Origin: Eukaryota sp. GEM-RC1
Lineage: Eukaryota
Length of the DNA: 64,000 nucleotides
Direction of reading: 5' to 3'
Assembly: GCA_040285855.1 (NCBI GenBank)
Contig: JAUFOQ010000002.1
Location: forward strand, 186,001-250,000
Part shown: in pieces, positions 1,867 to 53,350 of the stretch
Layout of the letters: every line of letters starts with the position of its first letter
Numbering within the stretch: the first letter of the stretch is position 1
Notes under the pieces: model-generated
Told to the model about the DNA's origin: nothing
The model's input: the letters and a program-made list of their open reading frames with translations, nothing else
The model's database searches: none
Position numbers and translations under genes: made by a program

Positions 1867-2017
1867 AGTTGCTTTCTGATCCATTTTAGTGATATCATCA
1901 TTTCTTCGTCACTGCCTCACTGTCTCCCTCTTTATGTTCTGGACCTGGGAGTTTCTGCTTTCGTTATCACATATACTTTAGTAGTTCAAATTCTACATTC
2001 TACAGTTCACTATTGCT

Positions 2018-2309
2018 CTAATGCTCACAATCACAATCTTTCTTGAATTTCTTACATCTTTGACAATGACTTCTGCTATCATGTCCTTCCTGGCGACACA
2101 CTCTACATTTCCTTGCGGTTTTCTTCTTTTGAGTTCTCATCACCCTACCATTCTCCTCATGAACTTTTGGACCTTCGTATCGATGGGCAGACCTTGCTAA
2201 ACCCACATTGGCAGCCTCTTCTAACCGTACCTTGTCTGCTGCTGACTCAGTAGACCGCCATTGATTGAACAGTTCTTCAACAGGATTAGAAATTTGACCT
2301 GGTTCTGCT
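2018..2309 (-). pseudogene. Inverted 3' part of the same MULE transposase, with C-terminal CCHC zinc knuckle
   Basis: Minus strand reads AEPGQISNPVEELF...RKCRVCRQEGHDSRSHC, continuing the plus-strand ...WWLDEEAEP. Confidence 0.85.
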
Positions 2310-2399
2310 CACTTTTGCTATAATCTTGACAGAACTGACTATAATCTTGACAACTTCTTTTCACTTTCCCTCAAATATCTCTCTTTATTATTCATAAAT

Positions 2400-4026: not shown

Positions 4027-4693
4027 GAGTTTGACTATAATCTTGACAAAAATGACTAAAATCTTGACAAAAATGACTATGCTCTTGACAAAAATGACTA
4101 GAATCTTGACAGCTTCTCATTCTTGCTAGAATCTTGACAGAACTGACTAGATTCTTGACAAGTTGCTTTCTGATCCATTTTAGTGATATCATCATTTCTT
4201 CGTCACTGCCTCACTGTCTCCCTCTTTATGTTCTGGACCTGGGAGTTTCTGCTTTCGTTATCACATATACTTTAGTAGTTCAAATTCTACATTCTACAGT
4301 TCACTATTGCTCTAATGCTCACAATCACAATTTTTCTTGAATTTCTTACATCTTTGACAATGACTTCTGCTATCATGTCCTTCCTGGCGACACACTCTAC
4401 ATTTCCTTGCGGTTTTCTTCTTTTGAGTTCTCATCACCCTACCATTCTCCTCATGAACTTTTGGACCTTCGTATCGATGGGCAGACCTTGCTAAACCCAC
4501 ATTGGCAGCCTCTTCTAACCGTACCTTGTCTGCTGCTGACTCAGTAGACCGCCATTGATTGAACAGTTCTTCAACAGGATTAGAAATTTGACCTGGTTCT
4601 GCTCACTTTTGCTATAATCTTGACAGAACTGACTATAATCTTGACAACTTCTTTTCACTTTCCCTCAAATATCTCTCTTTATTATTCATAAAT

Positions 4694-6321: not shown

Positions 6322-6988
6322 GAGTTTGACTATAATCTTGACAAAAATGACTAAAATCTTGACAAAAATGACTATGCTCTTGACAAAAATGACTAGAATC
6401 TTGACAGCTTCTCATTCTTGCTAGAATCTTGACAGAACTGACTAGATTCTTGACAAGTTGCTTTCTGATCCATTTTAGTGATATCATCATTTCTTCGTCA
6501 CTGCCTCACTGTCTCCCTCTTTATGTTCTGGACCTGGGAGTTTCTGCTTTCGTTATCACATATACTTTAGTAGTTCAAATTCTACATTCTACAGTTCACT
6601 ATTGCTCTAATGCTCACAATCACAATCTTTCTTGAATTTCTTACATCTTTGACAATGACTTCTGCTATCATGTCCTTCCTGGCGACACACTCTACATTTC
6701 CTTGCGGTTTTCTTCTTTTGAGTTCTCATCACCCTACCATTCTCCTCATGAACTTTTGGACCTTCGTATCGATGGGCAGACCTTGCTAAACCCACATTGG
6801 CAGCCTCTTCTAACCGTACCTTGTCTGCTGCTGACTCAGTAGACCGCCATTGATTGAACAGTTCTTCAACAGGATTAGAAATTTGACCTGGTTCTGCTCA
6901 CTTTTGCTATAATCTTGACAGAACTGACTATAATCTTGACAACTTCTTTTCACTTTCCCTCAAATATCTCTCTTTATTATTCATAAAT

Positions 6989-8542
6989 ATGAGCTTAAAT
7001 CAAAACATCGTCTTAAATGAGGAGGACCCTACAATCAATCCAACAACACCAGTTCCAAATAATTTGATGTCTTTTGAATCCTATGAAGATGCTGTTAACT
7101 CTCTGCAAAAGTGGGCCGGTGATAAAGGTTTCTCTCTCCGTACCGATGGTGGTAATGAAGGCCGTGGACGTGTTTATCTTTTATGCTCCTGTGCTTCTGT
7201 CCATAGACCTGGTCGTGTTAATGAGAACAATGACATTGTTCGACGTCGCTCAAAGACAAGAGTTAGGCAATGTGCTTTTAAGCTGTACCTTAAACTTCAA
7301 CGACGAACTTTGGAAGGTTGAATCAAGAAGTATAGTACACAAACATATGCTAGCAGCTGATAAAACTTCTACTTCTGAGTTGTATCACTCAATCAATTGG
7401 AAAGACTCATGTGTGCCCCGCTATCCACCACTCCGAAAAAAATCCTGTTGCAACTCAGGAAAGAAGCAAGAACCAATAATGAAGCAGTTTTATTAACAGC
7501 CAAAGATATTTCAAATATCCGCTATAAAACGAAATTGGAATCACAGGAGGGCCGAGGGCCAATTGACAGTTTGATTGAAAAAACGCGGACGGGTACATCT
7601 TTCGAGTTAAGTCTGATGCCGAAAACCGACTTGAAGCCCTGTTTATTGTAAACCGGGAGGTACTGCCGATTGCCAGAAGATTTCGGTATGTGTTCTGTCT
7701 TGACAGTACTTATAAGACAAATACATTTGGTATGCCAATGTTTCATATGGTTGGTTTTACGTGTTTAAATTCATCGTTCAGTGCTGCCTGTGTCTTTATG
7801 GCGAAAGAAACTGAAGAATACTATCTTTGGACCTTGGAACAATTTAAAGATGTAATTAACATTAATCCAGGAGTTTTTCTTACAGATAAAGAAAAGGCAT
7901 TGAATAATGCTGTCAGGCAAGTGTTTCCTACATCCGGTCACGTTTTATGCTTGTTCCATATCGTTCAAAATTTAATCCAAATTAAGAACGCTAAAGGAAT
8001 TTCTGATCCAGCATGGAAAATATTTATGGAACATTTTTACTCCGTAATTCAAAGTGAAGCATTAGAAGAATTTTGTTGGAATTTGGACGTGATGACAGGC
8101 AAATATGAAAATGACCGAGAATGTGGTGATGCCTTCATCTATTTAATTAACAATTGGTTCGATATGAAGGAAAGTTTCTGTTATTACAATATTGATCAAT
8201 TCACTCACTTTGAAACTTACACGAACAATCGAGCCGAGTCCGCCCACAATGCACTAAAATCCGGAGATCGAATGTACAAAAGAGACTTGGAGAGTGCTAT
8301 GGAAAATGTTATGGCTACTATGGAGCATCAAGTAATCGACTTAAGAAGAAACATTGATGTTGATAAGCAGAGAGTCGACCGAGAACTGATGAACACCCCT
8401 TTATTTGTGAACGTAATTCGACACGTGTCATCTTTTGCTTTGTTGAAGGTTTTACAAATTATTGCTTTTAGCCAAACGAATCATGTGGATTCAGTATATT
8501 CAGGTAGAACTGAGAGAATAACTGGAATTCCATGTATTCACA
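6989..8542 (+). pseudogene. MULE transposase copy 4 (variant B), truncated at the fold-back
   Basis: Identity to the unit ends at GIPCIH (8542). Confidence 0.9.
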
Positions 8543-8544
8543 TT

Positions 8545-9790
8545 GCTCGATTGTTCGTGTAAGTTTCAAAGTGAGTGAATTGATCAATATTGTAATAACA
8601 GAAACTTTCCTTCATATCGAACCAATTGTTAATTAAATAGATGAAGGCATCACCACATTCTCGGTCATTTTCATATTTGCCTGTCATCACGTCCAAATTC
8701 CAACAAAATTCTTCTAATGCTTCACTTTGAATTACGGAGTAAAAATGTTCCATAAATATTTTCCATGCTGGATCAGAAATTCCTTTAGCGTTCTTAATTT
8801 GGATTAAATTTTGAACGATATGGAACAAGCATAAAACGTGACCGGATGTAGGAAACACTTGCCTGACAGCATTATTCAATGCCTTTTCTTTATCTGTAAG
8901 AAAAACTCCTGGATTAATGTTAATTACATCTTTAAATTGTTCCAAGGTCCAAAGATAGTATTCTTCAGTTTCTTTCGCCATAAAGACACAGGCAGCACTG
9001 AACGATGAATTTAAACACGTAAAACCAACCATATGAAACATTGGCATACCAAATGTATTTGTCTTATAAGTACTGTCAAGACAGAACACATACCGAAATC
9101 TTCTGGCAATCGGCAGTACCTCCCGGTTTACAATAAACAGGGCTTCAAGTCGGTTTTCGGCATCAGACTTAACTCGAAAGATGTACCCGTCCGCGTTTTT
9201 TCAATCAAACTGTCAATTGGCCCTCGGCCCTCCTGTGATTCCAATTTCGTTTTATAGCGGATATTTGAAATATCTTTGGCTGTTAATAAAACTGCTTCAT
9301 TATTGGTTCTTGCTTCTTTCCTGAGTTGCAACAGGATTTTTTTCGGAGTGGTGGATAGCGGGGCACACATGAGTCTTTCCAATTGATTGAGTGATACAAC
9401 TCAGAAGTAGAAGTTTTATCAGCTGCTAGCATATGTTTGTGTACTATACTTCTTGATTCAACCTTCCAAAGTTCGTCGTTGAAGTTTAAGGTACAGCTTA
9501 AAAGCACATTGCCTAACTCTTGTCTTTGAGCGACGTCGAACAATGTCATTGTTCTCATTAACACGACCAGGTCTATGGACAGAAGCACAGGAGCATAAAA
9601 GATAAACACGTCCACGGCCTTCATTACCACCATCGGTACGGAGAGAGAAACCTTTATCACCGGCCCACTTTTGCAGAGAGTTAACAGCATCTTCATAGGA
9701 TTCAAAAGACATCAAATTATTTGGAACTGGTGTTGTTGGATTGATTGTAGGGTCCTCCTCATTTAAGACGATGTTTTGATTTAAGCTCAT
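8545..9790 (-). pseudogene. MULE transposase inverted copy (variant B), truncated
   Basis: Reverse complement of copy 4 up to YTNNRA. Confidence 0.9.
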
Positions 9791-10456
9791 ATTTATGAAT
9801 AATAAAGAGAGATATTTGAGGGAAAGTGAAAAGAAGTTGTCAAGATTATAGTCAGTTCTGTCAAGATTATAGCAAAAGTGAGCAGAACCAGGTCAAATTT
9901 CTAATCCTGTTGAAGAACTGTTCAATCAATGGCGGTCTACTGAGTCAGCAGCAGACAAGGTACGGTTAGAAGAGGCTGCCAATGTGGGTTTAGCAAGGTC
10001 TGCCCATCGATACGAAGGTCCAAAAGTTCATGAGGAGAATGGTAGGGTGATGAGAACTCAAAAGAAGAAAACCGCAAGGAAATGTAGAGTGTGTCGCCAG
10101 GAAGGACATGATAGCAGAAGTCATTGTCAAAGATGTAAGAAATTCAAGAAAGATTGTGATTGTGAGCATTAGAGCAATAGTGAACTGTAGAATGTAGAAT
10201 TTGAACTACTAAAGTATATGTGATAACGAAAGCAGAAACTCCCAGGTCCAGAACATAAAGAGGGAGACAGTGAGGCAGTGACGAAGAAATGATGATATCA
10301 CTAAAATGGATCAGAAAGCAACTTGTCAAGAATCTAGTCAGTTCTGTCAAGATTCTAGCAAGAATGAGAAGCTGTCAAGATTCTAGTCATTTTGTCAAGA
10401 GCATAGTCATTTTTGTCAAGATTTTAGTCATTTTTGTCAAGATTATAGTCAAACTC

Positions 10457-12085
10457 GGTTCTGCTTCCTCATCTAACCACCACTGTCGATGAAACATATC
10501 TTTGGAAAGTCTTTGTGTTCTTTTACTGCTGTGAATACATGGAATTCCAGTTATTCTCTCAGTTCTACCTGAATATACTGAATCCACATGATTCGTTTGG
10601 CTAAAAGCAATAATTTGTAAAACCTTCAACAAAGCAAAAGATGACACGTGTCGAATTACGTTCACAAATAAAGGGGTGTTCATCAGTTCTCGGTCGACTC
10701 TCTGCTTATCAACATCAATGTTTCTTCTTAAGTCGATTACTTGATGCTCCATAGTAGCCATAACATTTTCCATAGCACTCTCCAAGTCTCTTTTGTACAT
10801 TCGATCTCCGGATTTTAGTGCATTGTGGGCGGACTCGGCTCGATTGTTCGTGTAAGTTTCAAAGTGAGTGAATTGATCAATATTGTAATAACAGAAACTT
10901 TCCTTCATATCGAACCAATTGTTAATTAAATAGATGAAGGCATCACCACATTCTCGGTCATTTTCATATTTGCCTGTCATCACGTCCAAATTCCAACAAA
11001 ATTCTTCGAATGCTTCACTTTGAATTACGGAGTAAAAATGTTCCATAAATATTTTCCATGCTGGATCAGAAATTCCTTTAGCGTTCTTAATTTGGATTAA
11101 ATTTTGAACGATATGGAACAAGCATAAAACGTGACCGGATGTAGGAAACACTTGCCTGACAGCATTATTCAATGCCTTTTCTTTATCTGTAAGAAAAACT
11201 CCTGGATTAATGTTAATTACATCTTTAAATTGTTCCAAGGTCCAAAGATAGTATTCTTCAGTTTCTTTCGCCATAAAGACACAGGCAGCACTGAACGATG
11301 AATTTAAACACGTAAAACCAACCATATGAAACATTGGCATACCAAATGTATTTGTCTTATAAGTACTGTCAAGACAGAACACATACCGAAATCTTCTGGC
11401 AATCGGCAGTACCTCCCGGTTTACAATAAACAGGGCTTCAAGTCGGTTTTCGGCATCAGACTTAACTCGAAAGATGTACCCGTCCGCGTTTTTTTCAATC
11501 AAACTGTCAATTGGCCCTTGGCCCTCCTGTGATTCCAATTTCGTTTTATAGCGGATATTTGAAATATCTTTGGCTGTTAATAAAACTGCTTCATTATTGG
11601 TTCTTGCTTCTTTCCTGAGTTGCAACAGGATTTTTTTCGGAGTGGTGGATAGCGGGGCACACATGAGTCTTTCCAATTGATTGAGTGATACAACTCAGAA
11701 GTAGAAGTTTTATCAGCTGCTAGCATATGGTTGTGTACTATACTTCTTGATTCAACCTTCCAAAGTTCGTCGTTGAAGTTTAAGGTACAGCTTAAAAGCA
11801 CATTGCCTAACTCTTGTCTTTGAGCGACGTCGAACAATGTCATTGTTCTCATTAACACGACCAGGTCTATGGACAGAAGCACAAAAAGCATAAAAGATAA
11901 ACACGTCCACGGCCTTCATTACCACCATCGGTACGGAGAGAGAAACCTTTATCACCGGCCCACTTTTGCAGAGAGTTAACAGCATCTTCATAGGATTCAA
12001 AAGACATCAAATTATTTGGAACTGGTGTTGTTATATTGATTGTAGGGTCCTCCTCATTTAAGACGATGTTTTGATTTAAGCTCAT
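10457..12085 (-). pseudogene. MULE transposase inverted copy (variant A)
   Basis: 429-aa ORF here is open across an A-run that is frameshifted in the other copies. Confidence 0.9.
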
Positions 12086-12965
12086 ATTTATGAATAATAA
12101 AGAGAGATATTTGAGGGAAAGTGAAAAGAAGTTGTCAAGATTATAGTCAGTTCTGTCAAGATTATAGCAAAAGTGAGCAGAACCAGGTCAAATTTCTAAT
12201 CCTGTTGAAGAACTGTTCAATCAATGGCGGTCTACTGAGTCAGCAGCAGACAAGGTACGGTTAGAAGAGGCTGCCAATGTGGGTTTAGCAAGGTCTGCCC
12301 ATCGATACGAAGGTCCAAAAGTTCATGAGGAGAATGGTAGGGTGATGAGAACTCAAAAGAAGAAAACCGCAAGGAAATGTAGAGTGTGTCGCCAGGAAGG
12401 ACATGATAGCAGAAGTCATTGTCAAAGATGTAAGAAATTCAAGAAAGATTGTGATTGTGAGCATTAGAGCAATAGTGAACTGTAGAATGTAGAATTTGAA
12501 CTACTAAAGTATATGTGATAACGAAAGCAGAAACTCCCAGGTCCAGAACATAAAGAGGGAGACAGTGAGGCAGTGACGAAGAAATGATGATATCACTAAA
12601 ATGGATCAGAAAGCAACTTGTCAAGAATCTAGTCAGTTCTGTCAAGATTCTAGCAAGAATGAGAAGCTGTCAAGATTCTAGTCATTTTTGTCAAGAGCAT
12701 AGTCATTTTTGTCAAGATTTTAGTCATTTTTGTCAAGATTATAGTCAAACTCTGTACTGGTATGTCGTTGTACGATCACTTCTGACTTACGTAATGTTAA
12801 ATCACCATTCAATATCAAGACAAATATTTATTTGGATCCTTTCTCAGCAGAAAACAATTCCAAAAAAACAACACTTCCAAGCAAACGTGAATGAAGATTT
12901 GGCAAAAAAACACATCATGTTTCAACAATTTAGATAGTGTGTATTAGCATTTCATCTTGGATGAA

Positions 12966-13938: not shown

Positions 13939-14522
13939 CAGGAAAGTAGTCCAAAATTCAAAATTAAAGTAAAGTAAAGTACTTTACTTTACTTTAAGCT
14001 TTACTTTACTTTGATAAATAAAGTTACTTTAAGGACATTAAAGTTGAATCCAATCTCAATTCCTCTCCCATACATTCTCTCCTGAAAATTGAAAATTGAT
14101 TTCCATGACATTCCTTCCTTCCGAACAGCTCCTTCAAGACAGTTCTTCGACTGGCAACCAGCAGAGGAAGTGGTCTTTGTATTTGAGGATGATGACCAAG
14201 AAGTGTCTGATGAAGATCTAGAAGAGAATGAAGAAGATGTGGTCCAAGTTGAAGGAGTGAACCCATATGAAGATGTGGTCCAAGTTGATCCATAGTGAAA
14301 ATGATATATTCTCAAGCTCAACCGCTTTCCATTTTTACATTCCAGTTTTTGGTGAGTTTCTACAATAAAACATATAATAGTGTACTTTTGGTGTCAAAGA
14401 GTTATTTACTGTGCTCAGAAAGCAAAATAAACCAGATTGAGGTTTGTCACTTTACCGTTCCGAAATTTTAAAGTAAAGTAAAGTAAAGTCACTTTATCAC
14501 TTTACTACTTTAGTGAAGCCTG
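13939..14522 (+). mobile_element. Non-autonomous hAT deletion derivative
   Basis: CAGG...AAAGTAGT / ACTACTTT...CCTG ends; AAAGT subterminal repeats; TSD GTCCAGAc/a; acidic transposase tail (FFDW...) resembling the 44811 element; empty site at ~54090. Confidence 0.75.
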
Positions 14523-18781: not shown

Positions 18782-20118
<1,337 letters not shown>

Positions 20119-27654: not shown

Positions 27655-28136
27655 CAGTGTTCGAAAATTTTCCACCCGGACGTCACCCGGGTGGTGGATG
27701 GAACCGGGTGGCGTCCGGGTGGTTTTCATTTCCACCCGGGTGGTCACCGGGTGGTAATAAAGTACGAGACATAAGTTTTGGTGCAAAAACTACTTTATAC
27801 ACCATATACAATGAAACTGCAAGTACTTTAGCAGTGTGTGATATAAAATAACTAACAATGAAGTACTTTGTTTAGTTTTGGGATTAGAAAAACCCTCTGA
27901 AAAATAAATAAATAAGATGATATTAGCCTCTCCGAGCCTAGAAATACCTCCCGTTAAAATAATTGTATTCAGGACACGTTGAACAACGAAGTATGTATTC
28001 AGGAAGTCATGGATTGAAGATGATGGTAAGACCAAAATTATCCACCCAGTACCACCCAGACACCACCCGGGTAGTGGGTGGCACCGGGTAGCTCCCGGGT
28101 GGTTTTCATTTCCACCCGGGTGGTTTTCAAACACTG
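27655..28136. mobile_element. hAT MITE with CACCCGG subterminal repeats
   Basis: TIR CAGTGTTyGAAAA; perfect TSD CTTAATTG; same terminus as at 39403. Confidence 0.92.
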
Positions 28137-28672: not shown

Positions 28673-29346
28673 GTCTATCTCCGTCTAGAGTTAATGCTTT
28701 GAAATTTCCTTAGCGTAATCCCTAAGACCAATGCTATTGTTCAGTTCATTGAAGTAAAATCGTGATCTTTGGTCTTCAACTTCACCAGTGGATATTAAAC
28801 GTTGACGAAATGACTAGGACTTGTTGATGTGTGATCTTCTTTGTCTTTCTTTAAAGCGAGCTTCCAGAAATTGAACTACGAGATTCTGTACATGTTGTAA
28901 CATCAATTTCAATTGGACTTTTCACTACTTATTAAAGCTGTTATTATTATTGATGATGGTGACACCTATCGTTCTATCATCAATAGTTCTTACTACTGAA
29001 GTCATTGATACTTATTTTGATTTAATGAATGTTTTCAGTTGTAACTATTTAATTCCAACCTCCTTGTTACCTTTAGGAGATTCAGAACAATTCTATGTGG
29101 ATGCCCTTTTACAAACATCTAATTACCTTGATTTTAAAATAGGGTAACAGGACTTGACTTTAATTCTATTTGTGTATAAATATAGTGATGACAAAACGAA
29201 CAATTTGGCTATCGTAATCGGTTTTCATTGAAAACTGTTCAAAGAAGCTGACCCTTTTACGTACACGTCAGACTCAAGCAGTACTTTGTACACACAAACA
29301 GAGCAGACAAAAGGAGACAAAAAAATATTTATAGATCATTGGATAG

Positions 29347-29376: not shown

Positions 29377-29688
29377 CTAAACACCAAATCCATACAGCAC
29401 ACGTCCATGACGTTTCAAAGCATAGACAACATCCATAGCAGTGACGGTCTTTCTTCTAGCATGTTCACAATAGGTAACTGAATCACGGATAACGTTTTCT
29501 AAGAAAGTACGAAGAACAGTACGAGTTTCATCATAGATTAGAGCAGAGATACGTTTAACACCTCCACGACGAGCAAGACGACGGATAGCAGGCTTAGTAA
29601 TACCTTGGATGTTTTCACGAAGGACTTTGCGATGACGCTTGGCTCCACCTTTACCTAGACCTTTACCACCTTTACCACGACCAGCCAT
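29377..29688 (-). CDS. H4: Histone H4
   Basis: [19 protein letters not shown]...YGFG. Confidence 0.99.
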
Positions 29689-29950
29689 TGAATAAGATTT
29701 TATAAGGGTAAAGATTCCACTTTTTACTTGAGGAGGTGAAACCTGGATTGTTGTGCTTGGAAATTTTGTCGTGTGTATTTTTGATTGGGAAATTGTACTC
29801 TGGTTAATTGATTCTAGATTGGTGTTTGAGAATTACAGGCCAGTGAACAATGTGTTACATTGAAGAATCTCTGAAATCTACACACCAGAGGAATCAATCA
29901 GCTGAAAAACAACGATAAAGACAGAAAACAGTTTATGAGAAGAAAACAAA

Positions 29951-29966
29951 AGTGTTGAAAAACACC
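29951..29966 (-). promoter_or_regulatory. Histone 3' stem-loop (H3)
   Basis: GGTGTT-TTTC-AACACT. Confidence 0.8.
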
Positions 29967-29984
29967 GATAAAAACACTCCTTCT

Positions 29985-30392
29985 CTAGAAATCAGAACGG
30001 ATTCTCTTAGCTAAAGCCATGTCCTTGGGCATAATGGTAACTCTCTTGGCATGGATAGCGCACAAGTTAGTGTCTTCAAACAGACCAACGAGATAAGCTT
30101 CAGCGGCTTCTTGAAGAGCAGAGATACCAGTAGCCTGGAATCTGAGTTCTCCCTTGAATTCCTGAGCGATCTCACGAACTAGACGTTGGAATGGCAACTT
30201 ACGGATCAAAAGTTCAGTAGACTTTTGGTACTTTCTGATTTCACGGAGAGCAACAGTTCCTGGACGATAACGATGGGGTTTCTTGATTCCACCAGTAGCG
30301 GGGGCGGCTTTACGAGCAGCTTTGTGAGCCAAATGCTTTCTGGGAGTTTTAGCAGAGGTAGTCTTGCGTGAAGTTTGCTTGGTACGGGCCAT
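29985..30392 (-). CDS. H3: Histone H3 (divergent tail)
   Basis: [29 protein letters not shown]. Confidence 0.99.
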
Positions 30393-30710
30393 TTGTGATG
30401 AATATTGTGGTAGTGGGATGACATTGTTGACATTTCAATATGCAGGGAAATTGTCGTGCTGAGAATATTTTCTCGTGTGCCACGTTGACTAGGACTAGAC
30501 TATTTTGCCTTGGAGTCTTTGATGGTAGCAATTATTGACTTAATGTTGTGTTGAACCAGACAATGTGTGTCTTGATTATATGCACCTGATACATAGACTT
30601 CGCTAAAACAGTTGATATTGTTGTTTAGATATTCAGTCAAAATGAACAAAACAAACGTTGCAGAGAAACGTTGAATTAAACAAAAATCAAAGAAAGTAAA
30701 ACATTTATAA

Positions 30711-30726
30711 AGTGTTGAAAAACACC
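30711..30726 (-). promoter_or_regulatory. Histone 3' stem-loop (H2B)
   Basis: GGTGTT-TTTC-AACACT. Confidence 0.8.
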
Positions 30727-30736
30727 ATCAAACAAC

Positions 30737-31165
30737 TTACTCAGCTTCCCCTGAGGAACTAAACTTGGTAACAGCCTTGGTACCTTCAGAAACAGCATGC
30801 TTTGAAAGTTCACCAGGTAACAATAATCTAACAGCAGTTTGAATCTCCCTTGAAGACAAAGTGTTTCTCTTGTTGATTCTAGCAAGACGAGAAGCTTCAG
30901 TGGCAATACGTTCAAAAATATCATTGACAAAAGAGTTCATGATTCCCATAGCCTTGGTTGAGATACCAGTATCGGGGTGAACTTGACGCAATACACGATA
31001 AATGTAGGTAGCCCAGGTCTCCTTACGGGCCTTCTTACGCTTGACAACAGTAGGAGCTGCTCCTTCAGCTACAGCTTTGGCAGGAGCCTTGGAAGGGGCT
31101 TTAGCGGGAACTCCCTTGATGGACTTGGTAGACTTGGTAGACTTTACAGATTTCTTTCCGGGCAT
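30737..31165 (-). CDS. H2B: Histone H2B
   Basis: [34 protein letters not shown] at 31165. Confidence 0.98.
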
Positions 31166-31316
31166 TGAGGATAGAACTTGTTGTTTGAAGAATTGAATTG
31201 TGAGAAAAGGATTGCGTTCAAGTGAACCGCACCACCACGAGAATCTCTGCCTCACCGAAATTGTCGTGTTCATTTGTAACACCAATTTCTACAGATTCAT
31301 TTTCTCATCTCATTTA

Positions 31317-31697
31317 ATGTCTGAAGAAACTGGTGCCCGTACTCTCTCCTACAAAGCTGGACTCCAATTCCCTGTTGGTCGTATCCGTCGTTATCTTCGT
31401 GAAGGCAAGTATTCCGAACGTGTTGGTGCCGGAGCTCCTGTCTACATGGCTGCTGTCCTTGAGTATCTGACTGCTGAAGTTTTGGAATTGTCTGGTAACG
31501 CTGCTAGAGACAACAAAAAGTCTCGTATTGTTCCTCGTCATATTCTCTTGGCTATCCGTAATGATGAAGAACTCAGCAAACTTTTGTCTCATATTATGAT
31601 TCCTTCTGGTGGTGTTTTGCCTCACATTCACTCAGATTTGTTACCTAAAGGTTCCAGATCTCGTGATACCGCTGAGTCTGGTTCTCAAGAGATTTAA
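31317..31697 (+). CDS. H2A: Histone H2A with H2A.X-type SQEI C-terminus
   Basis: [20 protein letters not shown], ends SQEI; divergently transcribed from H2B. Confidence 0.98.
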
Positions 31698-39402: not shown

Positions 39403-40863
39403 CAGTGTTCGAAAATTTTCCACCCGGACGCCACCCGGGTGGTTTTCTATTCCACCCGGGTGGTCACCGGGTGGTCTAAAAATGAGAGACACTTTTTCAT
39501 GTTCTCCTCGATACACTTGTACTCATACATGCATCCGTATAACTCTCATCACTCACCCTAAAACTCCTTTCATAAAAGCAAAATACTTTATTCTAATCTA
39601 AACATTGGAACCATTCATCTAACATCTCCTCAGTCATTATGATCACGAACTTGTAGGTTCTGATGGAAACAAGGGTCAAAGAGTTCCATATCGTCATCAT
39701 CTTCGTCATCATTGACTTCAGCTTGTACTTGTCTCACAGGAACGTCTTCTACTTCTTCTTCTTCCTCTACCTCCATCTCTTCATACATTTCCACAATCTC
39801 TTCCGCCATCCATTGTGGGAAGTCCTCACGTGCAACTAAAAGCTTCTTTCGGAGTTTAAGATTGCAATAGACAAAAACGAGAGACTTCAGCAATTTTGTA
39901 CTCATTCTATTTCTTCTTTTGTTCATGATAAATCCAAATGCTGGCCAGTTTCTTTCAGCAGAAGATGCAGATGAAATTTGTCCCAACAACTGCGATGCTA
40001 CTGTTTTAAGTGGACTATCAGTTCCATGTAGCTTCCACCACTCATAGGCTGGTTGCTTCTGGGCTTCTTCCCAGATAAATGGATCATCGTAGTAAGGAGC
40101 CTTTTGGATCATATAATTTTGAAAGTCGGTATTGGCCTTTTCATAATCTTCTTTGCTGAGAACAGAACTAAGATATTCCCTCATAATCCTTAGGTAGTTC
40201 ACTAATCTTTCGCCTGAGTACCCCGCTAGTTTGGATTGGTTTTCAGGGTCCAACAAATGAGCAGTAATATGTGCTCGGGTTAGAACAGCATCCACTCGTT
40301 TCATTTCTATCGTCAATTGAAATCCAAGTCATGGTTCTGAGCAAGTCCAAAGTATTGTTGTACGCAGCGGCAGTTCTGTTCAGCAGTTTCCCAATATATG
40401 GAGTATCTTGATCAGAAAAAAGGATCAAATCGGCAAATGGTTTGAACAAATGAGAAATTTGACCTATTTTGTCCCAAAACGAGTACTGGCCAATACAAGG
40501 CAGAGACTCTATGTCTTTAACATGATGTAAAATTTCATGCATCTGCATCTTTTTTTCATGTGGCAACTTTCCAATCATTGCCAGAACATCGCTATGAAGA
40601 AGAGTAGTAATTACTGCATTCTTACACTCAATTATCCGTTGAAGCAATAAAAACCGAGTATAAAATCTGGTTTCTCCTGGAAAAAGTAATTTTTTTCTGA
40701 AATCTGATTAAAAACATCACGTGAGGTCTTGTGATTTCGAATGAATTTGGCAATTTTTTTTTTGCAATGTCAACGAGATTTTTGATGGTGGGAATACGTC
40801 CTTCTACATTGGTTAAAGCAAGATCGAAAGTATGAGCAGCACAAGGAAGCCAGAAAACTTTTC
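39403..40863 (-). mobile_element. 5'-truncated hAT transposon (3' TIR plus C-terminal half of the transposase)
   Basis: TIR CAGTGTTCGAAAATTTTCCACCCGG at 39403; VFWLPCAAHTFDL, PGETRFY, AHLLDP, SSASSAERNW in shifting frames. Confidence 0.88.
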
Positions 40864-40956
40864 ACACATCTTCCTTAATTACTCTACAAAATCCGAAGGC
40901 AATACAGTATACATTTCTGCATACTCCCTCCGGGGAAAGCTATACTACGTTACTAA
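40864..40956 (-). ncRNA. Candidate Fanzor omegaRNA scaffold
   Basis: Directly 3' of the Fanzor stop: CCGGAGG-g-AGUAUGCA-GAAA-UGUAUACU-guauug-CCUUCGG nested hairpin with G.U pairs. Boundaries inferred. Confidence 0.6.
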
Positions 40957-43900
40957 CTACGAGAGATATTCAGGTCTTCCTCTCCCTTCTCTATACCCAT
41001 CTACTATTCTCAACATATTCAAACACGCAAGCTGATTACGATTCCAATACTTTCTCTCACTTGATCCTCTACAATTCTCGCTTCGACATTCAAGTAGATC
41101 ATGACAAAGCACTTTTGGAGTTTTTTCTCTTCTGTAGGGTCTTGGATTCTCGATCTTGTGGAACTTCTTCACCTCACTTTCACAATCTGGGCAGCAACTG
41201 GATGTTTTCTTTTCATTCAATAAAACGACTTCAAATCCATTTCTTCTCAAGAAAGACCGCCATCCGATTCCTCTTGTCGGTCTGTGATGTTTCAAATTCA
41301 CTTGACCATTTGCCCCAAAATCACCCATACAGATCAGTAGTTCTTCTCTTCTTCGTCCAAAAGTCGATTCGAGTGACTTCAACAACCAGGACTCTACTTT
41401 CTGCTTATGGATGTAGGAACGCATTTTTTGGATGCGCCATAAGGCAGAACAGTAAAACCAAGCGGTTGAAGTCACTTGTTTCATTTTGGCCTGGACCCAA
41501 GCTTCGAGATCAGCAAACGTGGCAGATTTTGGACTTAATCCTGAAAGCAAGCTATCAGTTTCTTCAATTGTGAGCGGTGGAGTACTTTGAGAATCTTGAT
41601 TTGATCTGTTTCTTGATGGTCTAACTTTGAACTTTCTTCTGGCACCTTTTAGCAGGTGTTGTTGCTTTCTTGCTACCACAGTCCATTTGCATTGTGTCAG
41701 TCGCAGCCAATTACACTTGTTTTCTTGAATTTGTTCTTCATTTCTTCCACCAAAATAAAGTAGATCCCTTTTCCAGGGTCACAGACAACTACTTTTTTTG
41801 TTGTAAATTTTTCTGCTCGCATGTCTTTACAATAAACTTCTTTAATCTTTCCTTGTAAATCATCCTTACCTCTTTTTTCACCAGCAAAGTCGCGCCTAAC
41901 TAGCTCAATTGAACAGTTTTGGCCGTCACTGTGGATAATGTTGTTGAACACATAATCTTTCTTTTTGAACTCTTTTAAATCGAAGTTTACAAACATTTTC
42001 CAAAAATCATGTTGGTCTTTTGGTTTGAACTTGGTCACCTCTGCTTGGTTGTTCATTAACTTCAGATCCTCGGTTTTTTTGTTTTGCCTGACGATACTCC
42101 ACAAAGTTCTAGTATCAATAGGAAAGTAGCCTGGAATTACCGTGGTTACAGCGGGAAACCAGTGAAAAGCCGCTTCTTCTTTCTCCTTCACATAACGATT
42201 CATAGTTATGGCTGCCGGCATGAATAATTGAGGCTTTTTTCCAGTTCCGAAATTTTAGTAAATGGTCGAAGCACTCTTAATTCAAAAGGAGGTGATCTCT
42301 GCAAAATTTCAAATTTTTCAACGACATACGGGTAAATAAAGGCATCGTATAAAAGTCTTGTTCGTGAGGTCTCACTCCTTTTTCCCCCTGCTTTGTCCTT
42401 CCAATCTTCTTCAAACTTTTCTAGGCAAAATTGATTTGAAAGGAACAAGTTGAAGTTATCGACAGATTCAGCAGTAAAAATGTCTTTAATCTGTCGAAGA
42501 GCAAAACGATACAAAGTTAAAGTTTGTTGACAATCAGGTCGTTCTTCTCTTGGCAGCTCTTTAATTAAATTTGAAATTTCTTCTTCAGACTGCTTTTTTC
42601 CAAAATATACGTTAATGAAACGATTAATCTGTTTTTCAAAGTGGAGTTTCAAGTTGTTGTTAATGTTACACAAGAGCACTGGAGCAATGTATTCTGGTGG
42701 TCTAGAGAAGCCTTGAGGAGGAAACATTGGAAAGTTATGGCCTTCATTTGCTTCTAACTGAATACGATAGCCCTTGTGAATTGAGTTGCTGTCGAATTGT
42801 GCTTCTCCCATGACAAATCGTTCTAAGTCCGCATCAATTGCACTACTGGGCCGTTTATAGGGCTGACCATAAAATTGGGCACAAAGATAATTTATTCGAG
42901 TCATTACAGACGTAATCATTTGTTCAGTAATTTCAGGTAACGCTTCTCCACGTTCAAATCTTGCTGTTAAAAACAATTGCAGGCATTGTAGAGTATGGCG
43001 ACGAAGTTCGTGAAATTGAGGTGCTAGCTGCACAATGTTTTCAAAGACATCACGATGCTTCAAAATTCGTGGAAGAGTAGACTTTACCATCCTATAAGTT
43101 GGAAGAAGAAATTTTTCTTTCTGGAATAGCATACAAAGTTTTAAAGTTAAGTTGGCGTGTTGATAATTGTAATCAACTAAGAGAGAGACCAGTGTACTTT
43201 CACACCAACAATCAATGGGCAATAAATTTCCAAGTTCCTCCTTCTTAAGTTTGAGACAAAATTCGTGTATCAGATTTCGTGTAAGAGATGGTAAATCATT
43301 TCCAAATTTCATTGTGAGAAAACGTTTTGCGAACAATAAAGTATCAAGTATCAAGTATCCGTGTTTATTTTTAACAACTTCACGCCAGTTTTTAGATAAA
43401 AGATTAAGGTTGGATTCTTGGAAATTAACAGGCCATTGGAACTGATAAAACTGGAAACGCTTTTCCAAAACTTTGAAGTCAAATCCAATAATATTGTGAC
43501 CAGTAATGAAATTTGGCTGGTAATCTTGAATCACGTCTATCAATATATGGAGCAGGACCAACTCATTGGGCACAACATAGATTTCAGTTCTTGGGGATAA
43601 ACTGCATTCAATTGGAGAAGGTAGGTTTGTTGCACAAAGGTTGACACAGATAATAATTGATTTTTCTTCGTAAAAATTTTCTTCATTAAAACGGCCAAAT
43701 ATTAATGCAACTGACATAACTTTTTGGCTAGCAATCCATCGATCATGTTCTTCTGAATTCATCTTTTTTAACTTCAGCGATTCCTTTCCTCGAAGCTTAC
43801 TTAATTCCTCCGTAATAGCTGTTGGAATTTCATCATCATGATGCATTGTCTCCAGGTCAATAGACATAATTTTTGGAAGAGCATAAGTATTAGGGTGTTC

Positions 43901-44774
43901 TTGAGCACATCCGAATTCAATCAAATTCTGTTTTTCGTTGTTGTCATGTGGCTTAATTTTCCTCAAAGCTTTGAGACAAGATTTCTTAGCAGGAAAAACT
44001 CTATTAGACAGGCGTTGTCCATTAATTTTCAAGGGAGCTCTCCGTGATTTGGCCTTAACTTGAGCCTTTTTGGCAACTCTTGCTAAAATTTCGAGATCGG
44101 ACATTGGAGGACTAGAACTACTATCAACTCGACTTTTTTTTAACAGGGGGGAACAATGGAAGTCGAATCATCAAGTCGAATAAAAGGAAGACTCAATCTT
44201 GTACCGATGGGATCAGAATTGGGATTAGATTGTGGACCTGGATTGGATTCCACATCACCATCAGACGTAAGATCAATTTTGAACTGCAGTCTACAATCAA
44301 AACTGACAGAAATTTGCAAAAACGACACTTCAATAAAATTTCACCACCACCACCAAAACCACCACCACCACCGATCCACTGAATTTTACAAGGAGGCAAG
44401 TTTGGGGGCTGGAAAGCAGTGTGTTGCCCTGGTGGTTCTATCACCATGCTGGGCATGTAAAAATGATAGGCCTGACTGCCAAAAACAACACACATACTCC
44501 CATAAAAAACCCTCGACTTCGAAAAAATAAAAAATTTGGATTGAATTGGATCAATGACCAAAAATGCCTTCCTTGGGGTTTTGCTTGAACAATGATGCCT
44601 TTGAATAGCATATTGCCGCCCGGTCCCACCCAGGCTGTATGGATACAAGATATCTACAGAAGTTGCTTCTGTAGAATTCCACCTGATTTGATAGGATGAC
44701 TTTCCCACCAAAAACAGGCCTCTCATAGCCGTCGAATCAATGAACATCGACATGTGAGCAAAAAAATGGACCAT
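40957..44774 (-). CDS. Leader-2A-PolB exonuclease-Fanzor1 polyprotein (four 1-nt breaks)
   Basis: 2A GDVESNPGP; Exo motifs SIDLET, GHNIIGFDF, YNYQHA; Fanzor motifs NNNLKLHF..INRFIN, FP.....PGYFPIDT, IHSDG..CSI, VCDPGK.DLLY, GDFG, NEKKTSSCCPDC, C....C, WNRN.LACLNM, RPEYL. Confidence 0.8.
43130..43875 (-). other. Family-B polymerase-type DEDDy 3'-5' exonuclease domain, in frame with the Fanzor N-terminus
   Basis: IMSIDLET (ExoI), NELVLL...P.FITGHNIIGFDF..L..R (ExoII), LDTL, YNYQHANLTL (ExoIII, D>H); no stop or frameshift before TYRMVKSTL. Confidence 0.8.
44233..44274 (-). other. 2A (StopGo) ribosomal skipping peptide
   Basis: DLTSDGDVESNPGP matches the consensus D(V/I)ExNPG|P. Confidence 0.88.
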
Positions 44775-44810
44775 TTTGTGGGTTGTTGGTATTTATAGAT
44801 GTGTCTACAG

Positions 44811-47391
44811 CAGGGATTCCTAAAGTAGTCAACTTTTTCAGAATTAAAGTAAAGTAGTGTACACTACTTTACTTTATACTTTACTTTACTTTACACTTTA
44901 ACATACTTTAAGAATGTATAAAGTGATCCTGCATCTTACAATTTTGTTCTTCAATTATCTCTTCAGTTTTATGACATCTCTTCCTTCCGAGGAATGGAAA
45001 ACTCTCTGTGAAGTAGTGGAAGTAGTCTCTAGCACATGTGCCCGGTTCCGTTGTAAGCTGTGTGACGTCGTTCATTCTGTCAACAGGTGGACAATGGAAG
45101 GACATTTCTTACGTGACCTACCTAAAAAGCGTCCCATCTCGCTCTGTTCCAACATTGGACCTCCTGGTTCACAAAATGCGCTCAATGTTGCTGCTCTTAG
45201 AAGATACGTAGAGACTCATTCCCGGGGGCGTAAGCGGAAGGCTTCTCAACAGTCTACACCTGAGACGAAACGAAATGACCTACAGCCCTTTCTTTCTCCC
45301 GTTCCTGAACCTCCTGTCGATGAATCATCTACTGTGGTTGTCATCTCTGAGTCTGATCCAAATACATCATCTCTTTCTCCGACTTCTGCTGTCACGGCTA
45401 TTCCCCAGCCAACAATTGAAACTACTATTCCCATTGCAACTTCCCCCCAAGATCTGTAACTTAAAGCAGACAAAACTAAAGAAATTTTATCAAAAAAGTA
45501 GCAACCAAAATCTAGATGAAGTTGTTGCTCTTTATGCTCTAGGAGAAGGATTACCACTCACTAAAGTTTCTAAATCGACAAGGCTGCAAAATGTTATTGA
45601 AGGAGCTGTCGAGCATTATAAGCTGTACAACGAAGTTTTTGAATTACCATCTTATCAGAAATTGATGGACACAGTGGCTCCCAAAATTATTAAAAATGTT
45701 AAAAGACAAAGTACAGTCGACATTGCTACCCTTTGCACTGGTTGGACTTTAGTTATAGATGGATCAGAGATAAATTATAACAGTTTAATTAATTTCTGCC
45801 TTGTTGGTCCAAACAGGACAATTTTTTACAAATGCATTGAATGCAATTATCAGTCAAAGACTGCAGATTTCCTTAAAAATCTTTTTGTTTCAGTTCTCAA
45901 CGAAATTGGTCCTGAATATGTAAATTTTGTCATTACCGATGGAGCAGCAAATTATTTAAATGCAGCAACAGCTGTCCAAGATGTTTTCCCAGCCATCACA
46001 AGGATGCGGTGTAGCATTCACACACTCAATTTGTTTTTAAAGGACATTTGCTCGCCGACTTCAAATTACGTTGTGCCTTCAATTCGAAGTATTGTCGAAA
46101 AAGCCAACAAAGTAGTTGATTTTGTTGTTAACAAGCCTTTCATCCGGAAGCTTTTGAAAAAGTCAACCCAGAAGAAATTAAAACGAATTTGTTTGACACG
46201 ATTTTACACTCAATTCATCGTCATTGAAAGAGTACACGAATTGTACCAAAATGTCAATAACACTCTCACGAATGAAGACTATATCACCTGGCTTGCTAAG
46301 CCACAACAAGCTAGAATTAGAGAAGTATCTGCTGAGGTCAAGCTAATAGTTGCCGATGATGATTTTTGGGTTCAGGTAAAATTATTAATTGACTTCTTAC
46401 GACCAATCATTGACTTAATGCTGAAAATGGACAGTCTAACGCCAATTATGGGAAAATTGTACCGATACCTCGAATTGGAAGATCTGAGGTTATCGACAGC
46501 TCAGTTATCCATCCTAGAACCAGGTGAAATTGATAGCATAAGAAGTCGATTTCAGGTTCGAAAGAACCAATTAGCACATCCTTGTGTTAAAGCTGCATTC
46601 TGTTTGGATCCTGAAAACAGAAACATTGTCAGACTGAGTCGATACCTTGACTGTAGGAACGCACTTTTTGGTCTCATTGAACAACGGTTCGGTGAACGTA
46701 AGAAACCAGATGTTTTGCAACAGTGGAATGAGTACTTAGTTGGAACTGGGGAGTTTGAACATGAAGCAATTTTTCTTAATGCAAGGAAACAATCTGCTCA
46801 TAACTGGTGGTATGCCAATGGAGGGGACCAAGAATTATCTCAATTGGCAGTAAAACTGCTAAGTAGTGTTGCCTCCAATTCAGAAGCTGAAAGAAACTGG
46901 TCTGACTTCAGTGTTGTCTGTACCAAAGAGCGATCCAGACTAACAAGTGAGAAAGCCAGTGACTTTGTGATGATCAAACACAACCTGAAGAGGGGAAAGA
47001 TAATGAGTAGAAAGTTCTTTGACTGGATTGATGAAGAAGTTCTTGGTCCTGAGCTTGACAATTTAGAGGTCACAGATGATGAAGAAGTACAGCCTGTGGT
47101 GGAGGAGATATTGGTTCCTGAGTAATCTGTAGAAGAAGTGAAAACTTGAGTGCTCACCCACTCTTGATATGTATAGTTTAGATTTTGTAGTTTTTGGTGA
47201 GTTTCTACTTTATAAAAGTTGTTTAAATTCCTACTGTCGAAAGGAATAGATGTATACGGGATGGCTGGAGCAACCCTAGCAATCAAGAAAGAAAGTGCTT
47301 AAAGTGCTTAAAGTACTGAAAATATCTTAAAGTAAAGTAAAGTAAAGTAAAGTAAAGTGCTTAAAGTACTTTACTACTTTAAGAATCCCTG
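44811..47391 (+). mobile_element. hAT DNA transposon
   Basis: 19-bp TIR CAGGGATTCyTAAAGTAGT; perfect TSD GTCTACAG; AAAGT subterminal repeats. Confidence 0.95.
44971..47125 (+). CDS. hAT transposase (frameshift ~45445)
   Basis: CKLC...H...C finger; VIDGS, ITDGAANY, CSIHTLNL, TRF, AFCLDP, SNSEAERNWS. Confidence 0.92.
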
Positions 47392-48282
47392 GTCTACAGT
47401 GTCATGTCAGTTAAGACATTTATTGACGATTGTCTTCATTTTTCACTTTTCAGTGTCCTCTACATGTACAATGTATAGGTTGATCTTGTCAATATATCTT
47501 TCTTTTTAATTTTACTTTGGGATGTCTTATCTACATTTACTAAGAAGACACCATCTCTACATGTTCGATTCAATTCGTCTTTTCGCCTTTCAGCATCTTC
47601 GGCCGAAGCAGAAGATCCTCCATTTCTCTCAACCAACGATTTCACTGGTGCTGATGAGATCTTGAATGAATTATCAGTAAGTACAACTGACATCTTGTCA
47701 TCCGAATGTTGGTCTTGATTTCATCACTTATTGAAGCTTAATACAATCCCGAAGACTGGATTCATTGTACCGTTTACACTGATTCTTCCCCAAAGAGTTT
47801 TGTTCCTTACAGTTTGTTTCCGAGATCTCAGAAATCTTCTATCGTTTCAAGTCTTCTATTTCGCTCAGAAGATCTACCCTTCTCAAGATCTACCCTCTCT
47901 AAATCCCCTGCTTTCATGTCTTCAAGACTGAGAGCAACCAACCATCCCTCTCTCTTCATTACGTCCTTCAAGCAGATTTATGCTCATCGTAATTCCATGT
48001 TGTAGCCCATCAAATTGTTTCCCCTCCATGTAAGAAGCCTCTGATCTTTCCTGAAGACAGTGGTCAACCTTTTAACATTCCTCCGCCCACTCTTTCATCT
48101 CGTCAGTCTCTTAGTTTGTACAATTTTTCTGTCATTGTGAGAACTGTACCAATGGAACGCAAATGCTCCGTACCGCGGCGATTTTAGACGTACGATACCG
48201 TACGTACGGTACATGTACCGGCACTGTTCTTTTGACCGATCAAAATATATTAATACTTTTTTGAACATGATATTCCCGTTAC

Positions 48283-51140: not shown

Positions 51141-53350
51141 ATGATCGATACTGCTAAGTTTATTGCCGAAAACATTCGTCCCTATGATGGTGATGCCTCC
51201 TTTCTTGCTGGTCCAACCCAAAGAACCAAGGAATTGATGATCAGAACTGCTGAAATCCTCCGCGAAGAACTCCAGAAAGGAATCTATGACCTTGACATTG
51301 TCCGTCCAAGTACAATCACCTCCCATGGTCCTGGTTATCTTGACAAGACCAAGGAAACTATTGTAGGATTCCAAGGGGAAGCTCCTCTACAAAGAACGTA
51401 TGACTCTAGTTGACTAACAATAGTATGAAGTGTGCTGGAGGTGTCCGAGTTACTGCAACAGCTTGCAAGTCTTATGGCTACACAATGAACACAGAAACTG
51501 AAAGAGTCTTTACTGAATACGCTAAAACCCACAACGATGGTGTCTTTGACATGTACACTGCTGAAATGCGTGCTGCTCGTAAGTCTGGTATTATCACAGG
51601 TCTTCCTGATGGATACATGCGTGGTCGCATCATTGGAGACTACAGAAGACTTGCTCTCTATGGACTTGACCGCATGATCGCTGAGAAGAAACACGACAAG
51701 GACAATCTCCCCAAGACAATGACCGAAGACAACATGAAACTTCATGAGGAAGTTAGCGAACAGATCAAAGCTCTCAAACAAGTCAGAGTAATGGCCCAAT
51801 CCTACGGTTATGATGTTTCTCAACCTGCTAAGAATTGCCAAGAAGCCATTCAATGGACCTACTTTGGATATCTTGCCGCTATTAAGCAAGCAGACGGTGC
51901 AGCCATGTCTTTTGGACGTCCAGATGCTTTCTTTGATTACTTCATTGAAAGAGATCTTGATGCAGGCACATTTACTGAAGAGCAAGTTCAAGAATTCATT
52001 GATCATTTTGTAATCAAACTTCGTCTTGTTCGTCATCTCAGAACTCCAGAATACAATGATCTGTTTGCTGGTGATCCCACCTGGGTCACGTGTGTGCTCG
52101 GAGGCATAGATCAAAGTGGTCAACACATGGTCACTCGAACCTCGTACCGTATTCTCCAGACTCTCTACAACTTAGGTCCTGCTCCTGAACCAAATCTCAC
52201 TATTCTCTGGTCCCCTAAACTGCCAAAGACTTTCCGTGATTTCTGCTCTCAAGTTTCCATCGACACGTCATCAATCCAATACGAGAACGACGACATGATG
52301 CGTCCTATCTATGGTTCCGATTATGGTATTGCTTGTTGTGTTTCAGGTATGGCTCTCGGAAAACAAATGCAATTCTTTGGTGCTCGATGTAATCTTGCTA
52401 AACTTCTTCTCTACACCTTTAACAATGGAGTGGACGAGGTCACTGAACAACAAGTAGGTCCTCAATTGGGATCCCCTGTTGACGGTGATGTTTTGGACTA
52501 TGACAAGGTCTGGAATTCTCTATCAAAGTACATGGATTGGCTCAGTGAGTTGTACGTTAATACTATGAACATCATCCATTACTCTCATGACAAGTATGCT
52601 TATGAATCATCAATGATGGCTTTCCATGATACTTTTGTTGAAAGACTCATGGCCTTTGGAATTGCTGGACTCTCAGTTGTTGGTGACTCTCTGTCTGCTA
52701 TCAAGTATGCTAAGGTTTATCCAATTAAAAATGAAAAGGGTCTAGTAGTTGACTTTAAAACTGAAGGCGAGTTCCCCTGTTATGGAAATGATGACGACAG
52801 AGTTGATTCAATCGTAGTGTCTCTGTGTCACGAGTTCATTTCCCGTCTTAGAAAGTACCCAACCTATCGAAATTCAACTCACACTCTCTCTATTCTTACC
52901 ATTACTTCTAACGTTGTCTATGGTAAGAAGACTGGTAACACTCCTGATGGTAGAAGAAAGGGCGAACCTTTTGCACCTGGTGCTAATCCTTCTCATAACC
53001 GTGATTCTACAGGAGCTATTGCTTCTTTAAACTCTGTTACCAAGATATCCTATGATGATTGTCGTGATGGAATTTCAAATACGTTTTCTATTCTTCCAAA
53101 TGCTCTTGGTAAGTCCAAAAGTGAGCAAATCTCCAACCTATCTGCCATGCTTGATGGGTATATTCTACAAAAGGGTTTCCACATTAACGTCAATGCCGTT
53201 CGAAGAGAAGTTTTGATTGACGCCATGGAACATCCTGAGAATTATCCCCAGTTAACAATAAGAGTTTCTGGCTATGCTGTCAACTTTAATAGGTTAACTA
53301 GAGCACAACAAGAAGAAGTTTTGGCTAGAACTTTCCATTCTCATATGTAA
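51141..53350 (+). CDS. pflB: Pyruvate formate-lyase, 2 exons (51141-51397, 51424-53350)
   Basis: [23 protein letters not shown] catalytic Cys pair, RVSGYAV glycyl-radical motif. Confidence 0.96.
51398..51423 (+). other. 26-nt spliceosomal intron
   Basis: GTATGA...ACTAAC-AATAG; removal joins the two PFL ORFs in frame ([14 protein letters not shown]). Confidence 0.88.

Follow-up and report, generated by a model that had tools for sequence, protein, structure and literature searches.

Background

Skipping at 2A (StopGo) motifs is known in RNA viruses, in retrotransposons and in a small number of cellular genes, and two surveys, in the parts available, tie the 2As found outside viruses to retroelements and a small set of cellular families (PMC13405545, 10.64898/2026.09.24.754024). 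A similar architecture is found in APE-type non-LTR retrotransposons (L1Tc, Ingi, CR1, L2 and Crack), which in the accessible text of PMC3708506 are single-ORF mobile elements that likewise carry an N-terminal 2A before a nuclease domain. Excerpts of PMC13405545 add that a deubiquitinase-type domain sometimes lies near the 2A of non-LTR retrotransposons, comparable to the SENP8-like protease behind the 2A of one relative described below (P0015). Among viral 2As, EoPV-2A1, PnPV2A1 (iflavirus) and IMNV2A1 (totivirus) have measured activities of 0.99, 0.6 and 0.37, respectively, in the available sections of Rao 2025 (PMC12338488). According to parts of Li 2026 (PMC12846837), DLTxDG followed by DVESNPGP constitutes motif 4, which is almost 100% active in lysate, and variants with p14=His are active. 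In the available part of Odon 2013 (PMC3708506), the 2A core by itself is insufficient for activity, and 2A is proposed to reduce the downstream product. On the nuclease side, the closest systems are the Fanzor1 proteins PpFz1 (9cf0), SpuFz1 (8gkh) and GtFz1 (9cer); a D-E-N triad is natural and active in GtFz1 (excerpts of PMC11423790).

In the window, i.e. the whole stretch of 64,000 nucleotides that was analysed, we found a Fanzor1-type gene that lies behind a leader and a 2A motif. Viral 2As of motif 4 sit in RNA viruses, whereas this one lies in a protist DNA-nuclease gene. In contrast to the non-LTR retrotransposons, the element has no RT or APE, and its cargo is a PolB-type exonuclease with an RNA-guided RuvC. 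Unlike known Fanzor1 proteins, the product is about 1090 aa long, has an N-terminal exonuclease and follows a leader and a 2A. The 2A and the Fanzor are each of a known kind; what appears to be new, as far as our searches reached, is the 2A plus the exonuclease on a Fanzor. Full-text literature searches returned no description of this combination among the matches listed, and a main-text count of the word exonuclease gave 0 for each of PMC10711439, PMC3627910, PMC10432273, PMC10530073 and PMC13565253 (Jiang's extra-domain figure belongs to the supplements). Neither Fanzor nor the names of these organisms appear in the available parts of PMC13405545 and the Rao supplements (PMC12338488).

A class A 2A motif upstream of the nuclease

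The features at the 5' end of the gene are as follows.

44791..44797, minus strand: TATAAAT in a G-free 30-nt stretch 5' of ATG 44774; host-like start context
44236..44774, minus strand: leader of 180 codons, its last residue the Gly of NPG, with one break at 44322-44318; delimited by the open frame and sister copies
44343..44372, minus strand: (GGT)n Gly linker GGGGGFGGGG, whose length differs by whole codons among copies
44318..44322, minus strand: T5 run, break between leader frame and 2A frame in the window copy; 4 of 5 named copies read CRF-LQISV through
44233..44274, minus strand: 2A/StopGo motif DLTSDG-DVESNPG/P, class A, DLTxDG type; skip predicted between 44236 and 44235
44140..44151, minus strand: C6 run (44151-44146) and TAA (44142-44140), the candidate break at which the frames of 2A and exonuclease-Fanzor part; the window, P0057 and P0058 end IVPPC

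The 2A motif, DLTSDGDVESNPGP, occupies 44274-44233 of the minus strand, exactly where the original prediction had placed it, and is the sole NPGP-type match in the six frames of the window, where the chance expectation for D[VI]ExNPGP is 4e-5 matches. Minus-strand translation around this 14-mer reads ...LQFKIDLTSDGDVESNPGPQSNPNSDPIGTRLSLPFIRLDDSTSIVPPC*, and 43 codons lead from its Pro to ATG 44104, in agreement with the predicted distance of about 43. The class A motif 4 core D(V/I)ExNPGP is present as DVESNPGP, with Ser at p15, and is directly preceded by the hexapeptide DLTxDG as DLTSDG. The preferred WV(R/K) before DLT, a signature outside the motif definition, is absent: the window has Phe-Lys-Ile in place of the Trp-Val-Arg/Lys of viral motif-4 2As, and skipping by the window peptide is predicted only. 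It shares 13 of 14 residues with each of EoPV-2A1, PnPV2A1 and IMNV2A1. The exact 14-mer is entered four times as a predicted class A 2A in the accessible part of Rao 2025 (PMC12338488), at least two of the four entries being dinoflagellate proteins, again as predictions. An assignment to class B was rejected, as the core is GDVE and has no Trp, against the invariant Trp and EEG(I/V)E given for that class in the same part of Rao 2025 (PMC12338488).

We consider it likely that the window 2A skips efficiently. It is rather improbable that the frame is continuous and the 2A skips poorly, leaving mostly a 1273-aa fusion or acting mainly to lower output. This would agree with the replacement of the signature Trp by Phe, which costs class B peptides 2.3-fold (sections of PMC12338488), with P0055, a close copy that has SIPGP instead of NPGP, and with the 2026 screen, in the available parts of which most retrotransposon-linked 2A-likes reduced protein abundance (PMC13405545). 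However, the core is perfect and comes with DLTxDG, the Asn is kept in 5/6 close sequences, and the motif is retained across deep splits.

In-frame 2A motifs in relatives

Using phmmer, we compared the 652-aa piece of the gene with 1.84 billion representatives and obtained 35 matches. The best of these are named proteins, from three related protists (GEMRC1_, RCL1_, P9112_). A 2A-like motif was detected in four of the 35 (P0013, P0015, P0019 and P0029), to which cluster members add P0049 and P0050. All of these motifs are in frame and precede the first exonuclease motif by 48-293 residues. W-x-K-DLT-x-DG or LLLDG is kept ahead of them (WIK precedes DLT in P0050 and WKK in P0015, compared with FKI in the window), and p14 is His in two subfamilies. 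The 2A bearers are spread over three branches besides that of the window in a tree of 21 rows that does not resolve the deeper forks. Between subfamilies, identity in the exonuclease region is 19-40%, and the exonuclease regions of the family group apart from 10 PolB matches with support of 100/100. The relatives are gene models, possibly with predicted introns, and were compared as protein only.

P0050 shows the order in a single 1124-aa model, with a 247-aa leader, WIKDLTADGDVHKNPG/P, the exonuclease and the Fanzor body up to DPGK (RuvC-I). In P0015, a protease of the SENP8/Ulp1-like cysteine type (SENP8-like, E 3.7e-4) lies between the 2A and the exonuclease. The core of the original prediction, a single ORF running from leader through 2A and exonuclease to Fanzor, is strongly supported by P0013/P0049/P0050, P0015, P0019 and P0029, and by the leader-2A join in four of five sister copies. 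Motif, domains and copy number were observed, as was the in-frame 2A-to-exonuclease order in the relatives' gene models, and the in-frame 2A is very probably the design of the family. The annotated N-termini of two subfamilies, P0011/43/44/45 and P0009/46/48, and of P0018 have no 2A.

The same comparison bears on whether the 2A is part of an unrelated retroelement or viral fragment that adjoins the Fanzor by chance. Known cellular 2As are mostly those of non-LTR retrotransposons (in the available parts of PMC13405545 and PMC3708506) and the region is a nest of transposons, but the order is identical in distant subfamilies of three named organisms, a Pfam scan found no RT or APE domain in the ORFs of the element, and P0050, P0015, P0019 and P0029 contradict such an origin unless their gene models are wrong. 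We regard it as extremely improbable.

In P0044 (2027 aa), a DEAH-type helicase precedes an intact exonuclease-Fanzor; this model may be merged with a host gene. A homolog search limited to 1142-3260 aa found none, and was insensitive, given that P0011 (1281 aa) and P0044 exist. Metagenome contigs scanned with the window ORF and P0050 gave no related loci, and viral contigs scanned with P0011 (2 stretches matched) and the RuvC piece gave 0 loci.

Frame breaks in the window copy and its sister copies

Downstream of the 2A, the window copy consists of three ORF pieces (44167-42206, 42254-41697 and 41778-40957). Its own protein belongs to a 7-member 90% cluster, and 15 close proteins were walked along the frames of the window to place the breaks. 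There are six indels, including a compensated +1/-1 pair at ~42388/~42352 that is hidden inside the long ORF and seen against P0001, P0003, P0005 and P0007 and, by sequence, also P0002. The breaks are therefore not all losses, and the four one-nucleotide losses of the original prediction had to be revised.

The leader frame had been thought to end at the Gly linker; it is open to 44193 in the window, and in P0055, P0057, P0058 and P0059 the Gly-linker frame continues into that of the 2A at the T5 run (44322-44318). P0056 changes frame earlier, via a poly-Trp frame that the window closes by TGA. We rejected the poly-Trp frame as the true leader, since this TGA is in frame in the window and 4/5 copies use the Gly frame.

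Further downstream, the A6 break at 42240-42235 is read through in 5/5 other copies. A second break falls within a catalytic motif:

41766..41772, minus strand: A4G3 run, break inside the DPGK motif, common to P0001 and P0007

This break, read through in six more distant relatives (P0011/44/45/46/50/20), is found in 3/3 close copies and so provides a precedent for a shared break. Private cut-offs of other copies lie at 41965, 41875, 41793, 42551, 42779 and 43808, and no named close copy is intact.

The C6 run was predicted to join the 2A to the nuclease ORF. The run and the TAA behind it were located accordingly, but the junction is read through in 0/3 sequences (window, P0057 and P0058). Both P0057 and P0058 stop at IVPPC, so that for the window we infer the C6 join. 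A continuous frame from 2A into exonuclease is present in P0056 and in four other subfamilies. Read through, the gene encodes 180 + 1093 aa, in line with the ~1270-codon ORF that had been proposed.

As had been pointed out, beta-tubulin (~18782-20118) is one base short in a T run at about 19020. Single-base indels in homopolymer runs also distinguish near-identical tandem MULE copies, and all four core histone genes, clustered at 29377-31697, are intact. Repeats tend to be poorly polished in Nanopore assemblies with Illumina correction. The assemblies of the named relatives are of this kind (Nanopore R9.4/9.5 with Illumina correction, according to part of 10.1101/2023.05.03.539051). The C6 break is probably a systematic homopolymer error, and we consider it likely that the reading frame is continuous in the window's subfamily.

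If the TAA were instead real in this subfamily, leader and 2A would form a 211-codon uORF, and re-initiation or a -1 frameshift would give the nuclease from MSDLE; alternatively, the subfamily would be dead and amplified in trans. The ends at IVPPC and the breaks at DPGK, each in 3/3 sequences, an in-frame Met 36 nt beyond the stop and the loss of the third exonuclease Asp in the subfamily (see below) would all fit. Against a continuous frame, five named copies (P0005, P0007, P0010, P0053 and P0054) also have MSNLE as their annotated start, although the 2A frame itself offers no Met for initiation. Yet both shared breaks are one-base homopolymer shortfalls, as in the copy-private ones, and P0056 reads through from the same 2A. 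Slippery frameshift sites follow the pattern X XXY YYZ, and neither site matches it. MSDLE has 7 G in the upstream 30 nt, unlike host starts, and no stop interrupts the RuvC half, in which every motif is present. A real TAA is quite unlikely in our view, and we retain the reading of a continuous frame.

An exonuclease-Fanzor1 protein

The nuclease part contains the following features.

43990..44146, minus strand: basic N-terminal stretch LLKKSR...KVKAKSRR...PAKKSCLKALRKIK; NLS-like by composition only
43130..43880, minus strand: PolB-type 3'-5' exonuclease domain, Pfam DNA_pol_B_exo1 (PF03104), E 4.9e-16
41769..43130, minus strand: Fanzor1 REC/WED region up to the RuvC-I Asp (41780-41778), with the indel pair ~42388/42352 and the A6 break 42240-42235
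40957..41768, minus strand: remaining RuvC with Glu 41214-41212, C4 zinc finger, Asn 41037-41035 and stop TAG; PpFz1/SpuFz1 matches
40880..40960, minus strand: candidate omegaRNA/right-end region, by position only

The exonuclease domain resembles the proofreading domain of family B DNA polymerases, with matches to Pol II, delta and alpha; it differs from these enzymes in that the protein has no polymerase domain and the Asp of the third motif is His. PolB-type DEDDy exonucleases have the motifs DxE, NxxxFD and YxxxD. The first two are present as IDLET and GHNIIGFD, and the third is YNYQH in the window and 4/4 close copies. All seven more distant relatives examined keep this Asp; its replacement by His means that the exonuclease is probably weakened in the window's subfamily.

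The last ORF piece matches the solved Fanzor1 proteins PpFz1 (E 1.4e-29) and SpuFz1 (E 2.8e-23). The RuvC-I Asp (DPG) is present at 41780-41778, and the rearranged Glu lies six residues 5' of the C4 zinc finger, together with [TS][TS] (NEKKTSSCCPDC...CRSENC). The third RuvC residue is Asn, as WNRN in the window and P0045, which departs from the strict RD given by Bao and Jurka. The Glu before the zinc finger is shared with Fanzor1, and the D-E-N triad with GtFz1. PpFz1, SpuFz1 and GtFz1 rank first among the sequence and fold matches. For a model of P0045, an intact relative (pLDDT 63), these three solved Fz1 proteins are the top fold matches, in REC/WED and not just in RuvC, and PolB comes next. 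The candidate omegaRNA region at 40880-40960 has a fold z of -1.05 (one sequence) and no Rfam match.

The leader and its start

The leader opens at ATG 44774, preceded by TATAAAT (44797-44791) as originally described, and its frame runs through the Gly linker at 44372-44343. The frame stays open for 150 codons, as happened in 6 of 20000 shuffles (p about 3e-4), which suggests some selection on the leader. Its codon score is neutral (0.01), compared with 0.24 for the 2A segment, 0.30 for the start of the exonuclease and 0.15 for a second exonuclease control. The 30 nt 5' of ATG 44774 have 0 G, a feature spotted post hoc that is equalled by 12/2362 ATGs of the window. The same stretch has 1-2 G at clear host starts and 3-6 at other first ATGs compared, and the alternative starts MCVV, MPSM and MSDLE have 10, 6 and 7. 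The TATAAAT heptamer alone occurs at chance frequency (14 seen vs 14.9 expected in the window). It is also found at 29327-29333 and 30703-30709, 28-44 nt 3' of the H4 and H2B stops, and may therefore double as a 3'-end signal in this organism. Annotated starts at MVHFF are found in 0/5 named leader copies (MCVV in 2, MPSM in 3), so that the N-terminal 93 residues of the leader come from the window copy only.

No Pfam match and no usable Atlas match to the leader were found. An AlphaFold model, uninformative given its single-sequence input (pLDDT only 47), has hints of an all-beta fold and in Foldseek, the structure search suggested earlier, gave no match at E<=0.001. A homolog search among proteins of 106-338 aa found none beyond the sister copies (2/60 candidates returned, 5 proteins once cluster members are counted). 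Leaders of 189-247 aa precede the 2A in P0049, P0050 and P0015. No similarity was detected between the window leader and those of P0050, P0015 and P0029, the relatives' leaders being Ser-rich repeat. P0015 and P0050 have ~105 leader residues in common with cargoes just 28% identical. P0055, P0056 and P0059 have the same leader end and 2A as the window and depart from it 15-16 residues past the Pro. In P0056, the identical leader end and 2A are read on into a different exonuclease-like domain, which has a weak Pfam exonuclease match (0.0014, below the cut-off), Atlas matches under 0.9 and no PDB match.

The predicted products were an ~180-aa partner and an ~1090-aa nuclease. Both lengths stand (180 and 1093 aa when read through), whereas a partner protein is not supported, given the lack of detected similarity across subfamilies, the neutral codons and the sharing of the leader with different cargo. 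The leader has more of an expression cassette about it than of a conserved partner, and we lean slightly towards its having no function of its own. That the same polyprotein carries a functional 180-aa partner, for example an RNA/DNA chaperone or regulator like the ORF1p-type functions upstream of retrotransposon 2As, would be in keeping with the open frame, the host-like start, the leaders of similar position in P0049, P0050 and P0015 and the all-beta hint of AlphaFold. It is at odds with the neutral codon score, the empty Pfam, Atlas and Foldseek searches (the latter with the low-scoring single-sequence model) and the lack of homology to the Ser-rich repeat leaders, and we consider it unlikely.

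Proposed expression and use of the nuclease

The overall reading that we find somewhat more probable than its alternatives taken together is a multicopy mobile gene with one frame that, through skipping, would yield a likely dispensable leader of 180 residues and a predicted Pro-initiated nuclease of 1093 residues. A host-type start a short way upstream of ATG 44774 would initiate transcription, and the breaks in the window copy would be homopolymer assembly errors. StopGo at 44236/44235 would leave the Gly-Pro bond unformed, so that the 1093-residue nuclease begins with Pro; the predicted neo-N-terminal peptide of the freed nuclease is PQSNPNSDPIGTR. The basic N-terminal stretch could carry it into the nucleus, where it may load omegaRNA from the 3' end of the element. 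Guide-matched DNA would then be cut by the GtFz1-like D-E-N site, as in Fanzor1. In relatives with all three exonuclease motifs, the exonuclease probably trims the DNA ends at the cut.

The promoter-leader-2A unit could serve as an expression cassette that gives the nuclease a defined N-terminus regardless of the 5' coding content of the element. It would make the cargo behind the 2A exchangeable, and may keep the amount of nuclease below that of the leader. A shared 5' cassette with exchangeable cargo is the simplest reading. Its extended form is more tentative, at slightly less than even weight: a portable promoter-leader-2A cassette with interchangeable cargo (exonuclease-Fanzor, protease-exonuclease-Fanzor and another exonuclease protein). 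In nature, this may be the first case of an OMEGA nuclease made as a StopGo polyprotein, and the Fanzor would bring its own exonuclease to process the cut ends and steer repair.

A 2A kept across deep Fanzor splits would extend skipping to RNA-guided DNA nucleases. The family would also be a simple system in which to ask why mobile elements place a 2A before a nuclease, a clean N-terminus or dose control. Nuclease-exonuclease editors have been engineered, and the exonuclease-Fanzor is their counterpart in nature; it may reveal how repair of Fanzor cuts is steered. Caution is needed with annotated models, as gene callers begin such 2A genes at the wrong Met.

Neighbouring elements

No convincing TIR or TSD pair that bounds the Fanzor element was found in the window. 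Upstream lies a hAT element:

44803..47399, plus strand: hAT insertion (DUF659 type) with TIRs at 44811-47391 and the 8-bp TSD GTCTACAG; outside the Fanzor ORF

This insertion is apparently recent and lies 5 nt upstream of the TATAAAT; a related end is present at 13943-14033. It may have cut the promoter of the window copy. We rejected this hAT as the carrier of the Fanzor gene, as it has its own TIRs and TSD. Directly behind the Fanzor, at 39403-40880, another hAT is represented by its right end and the C-terminal half of its transposase, and this type of end recurs at 27655-28124; the N-terminal half of this transposase was not found upstream or elsewhere in the window. Near-identical MULE units of 2294 bp, with two variants in alternation, fill positions 1-12760 as an array of tandem and inverted copies. 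Finally, an intronless pyruvate formate-lyase gene is present at 51410-53350, which fits an anaerobic protist.
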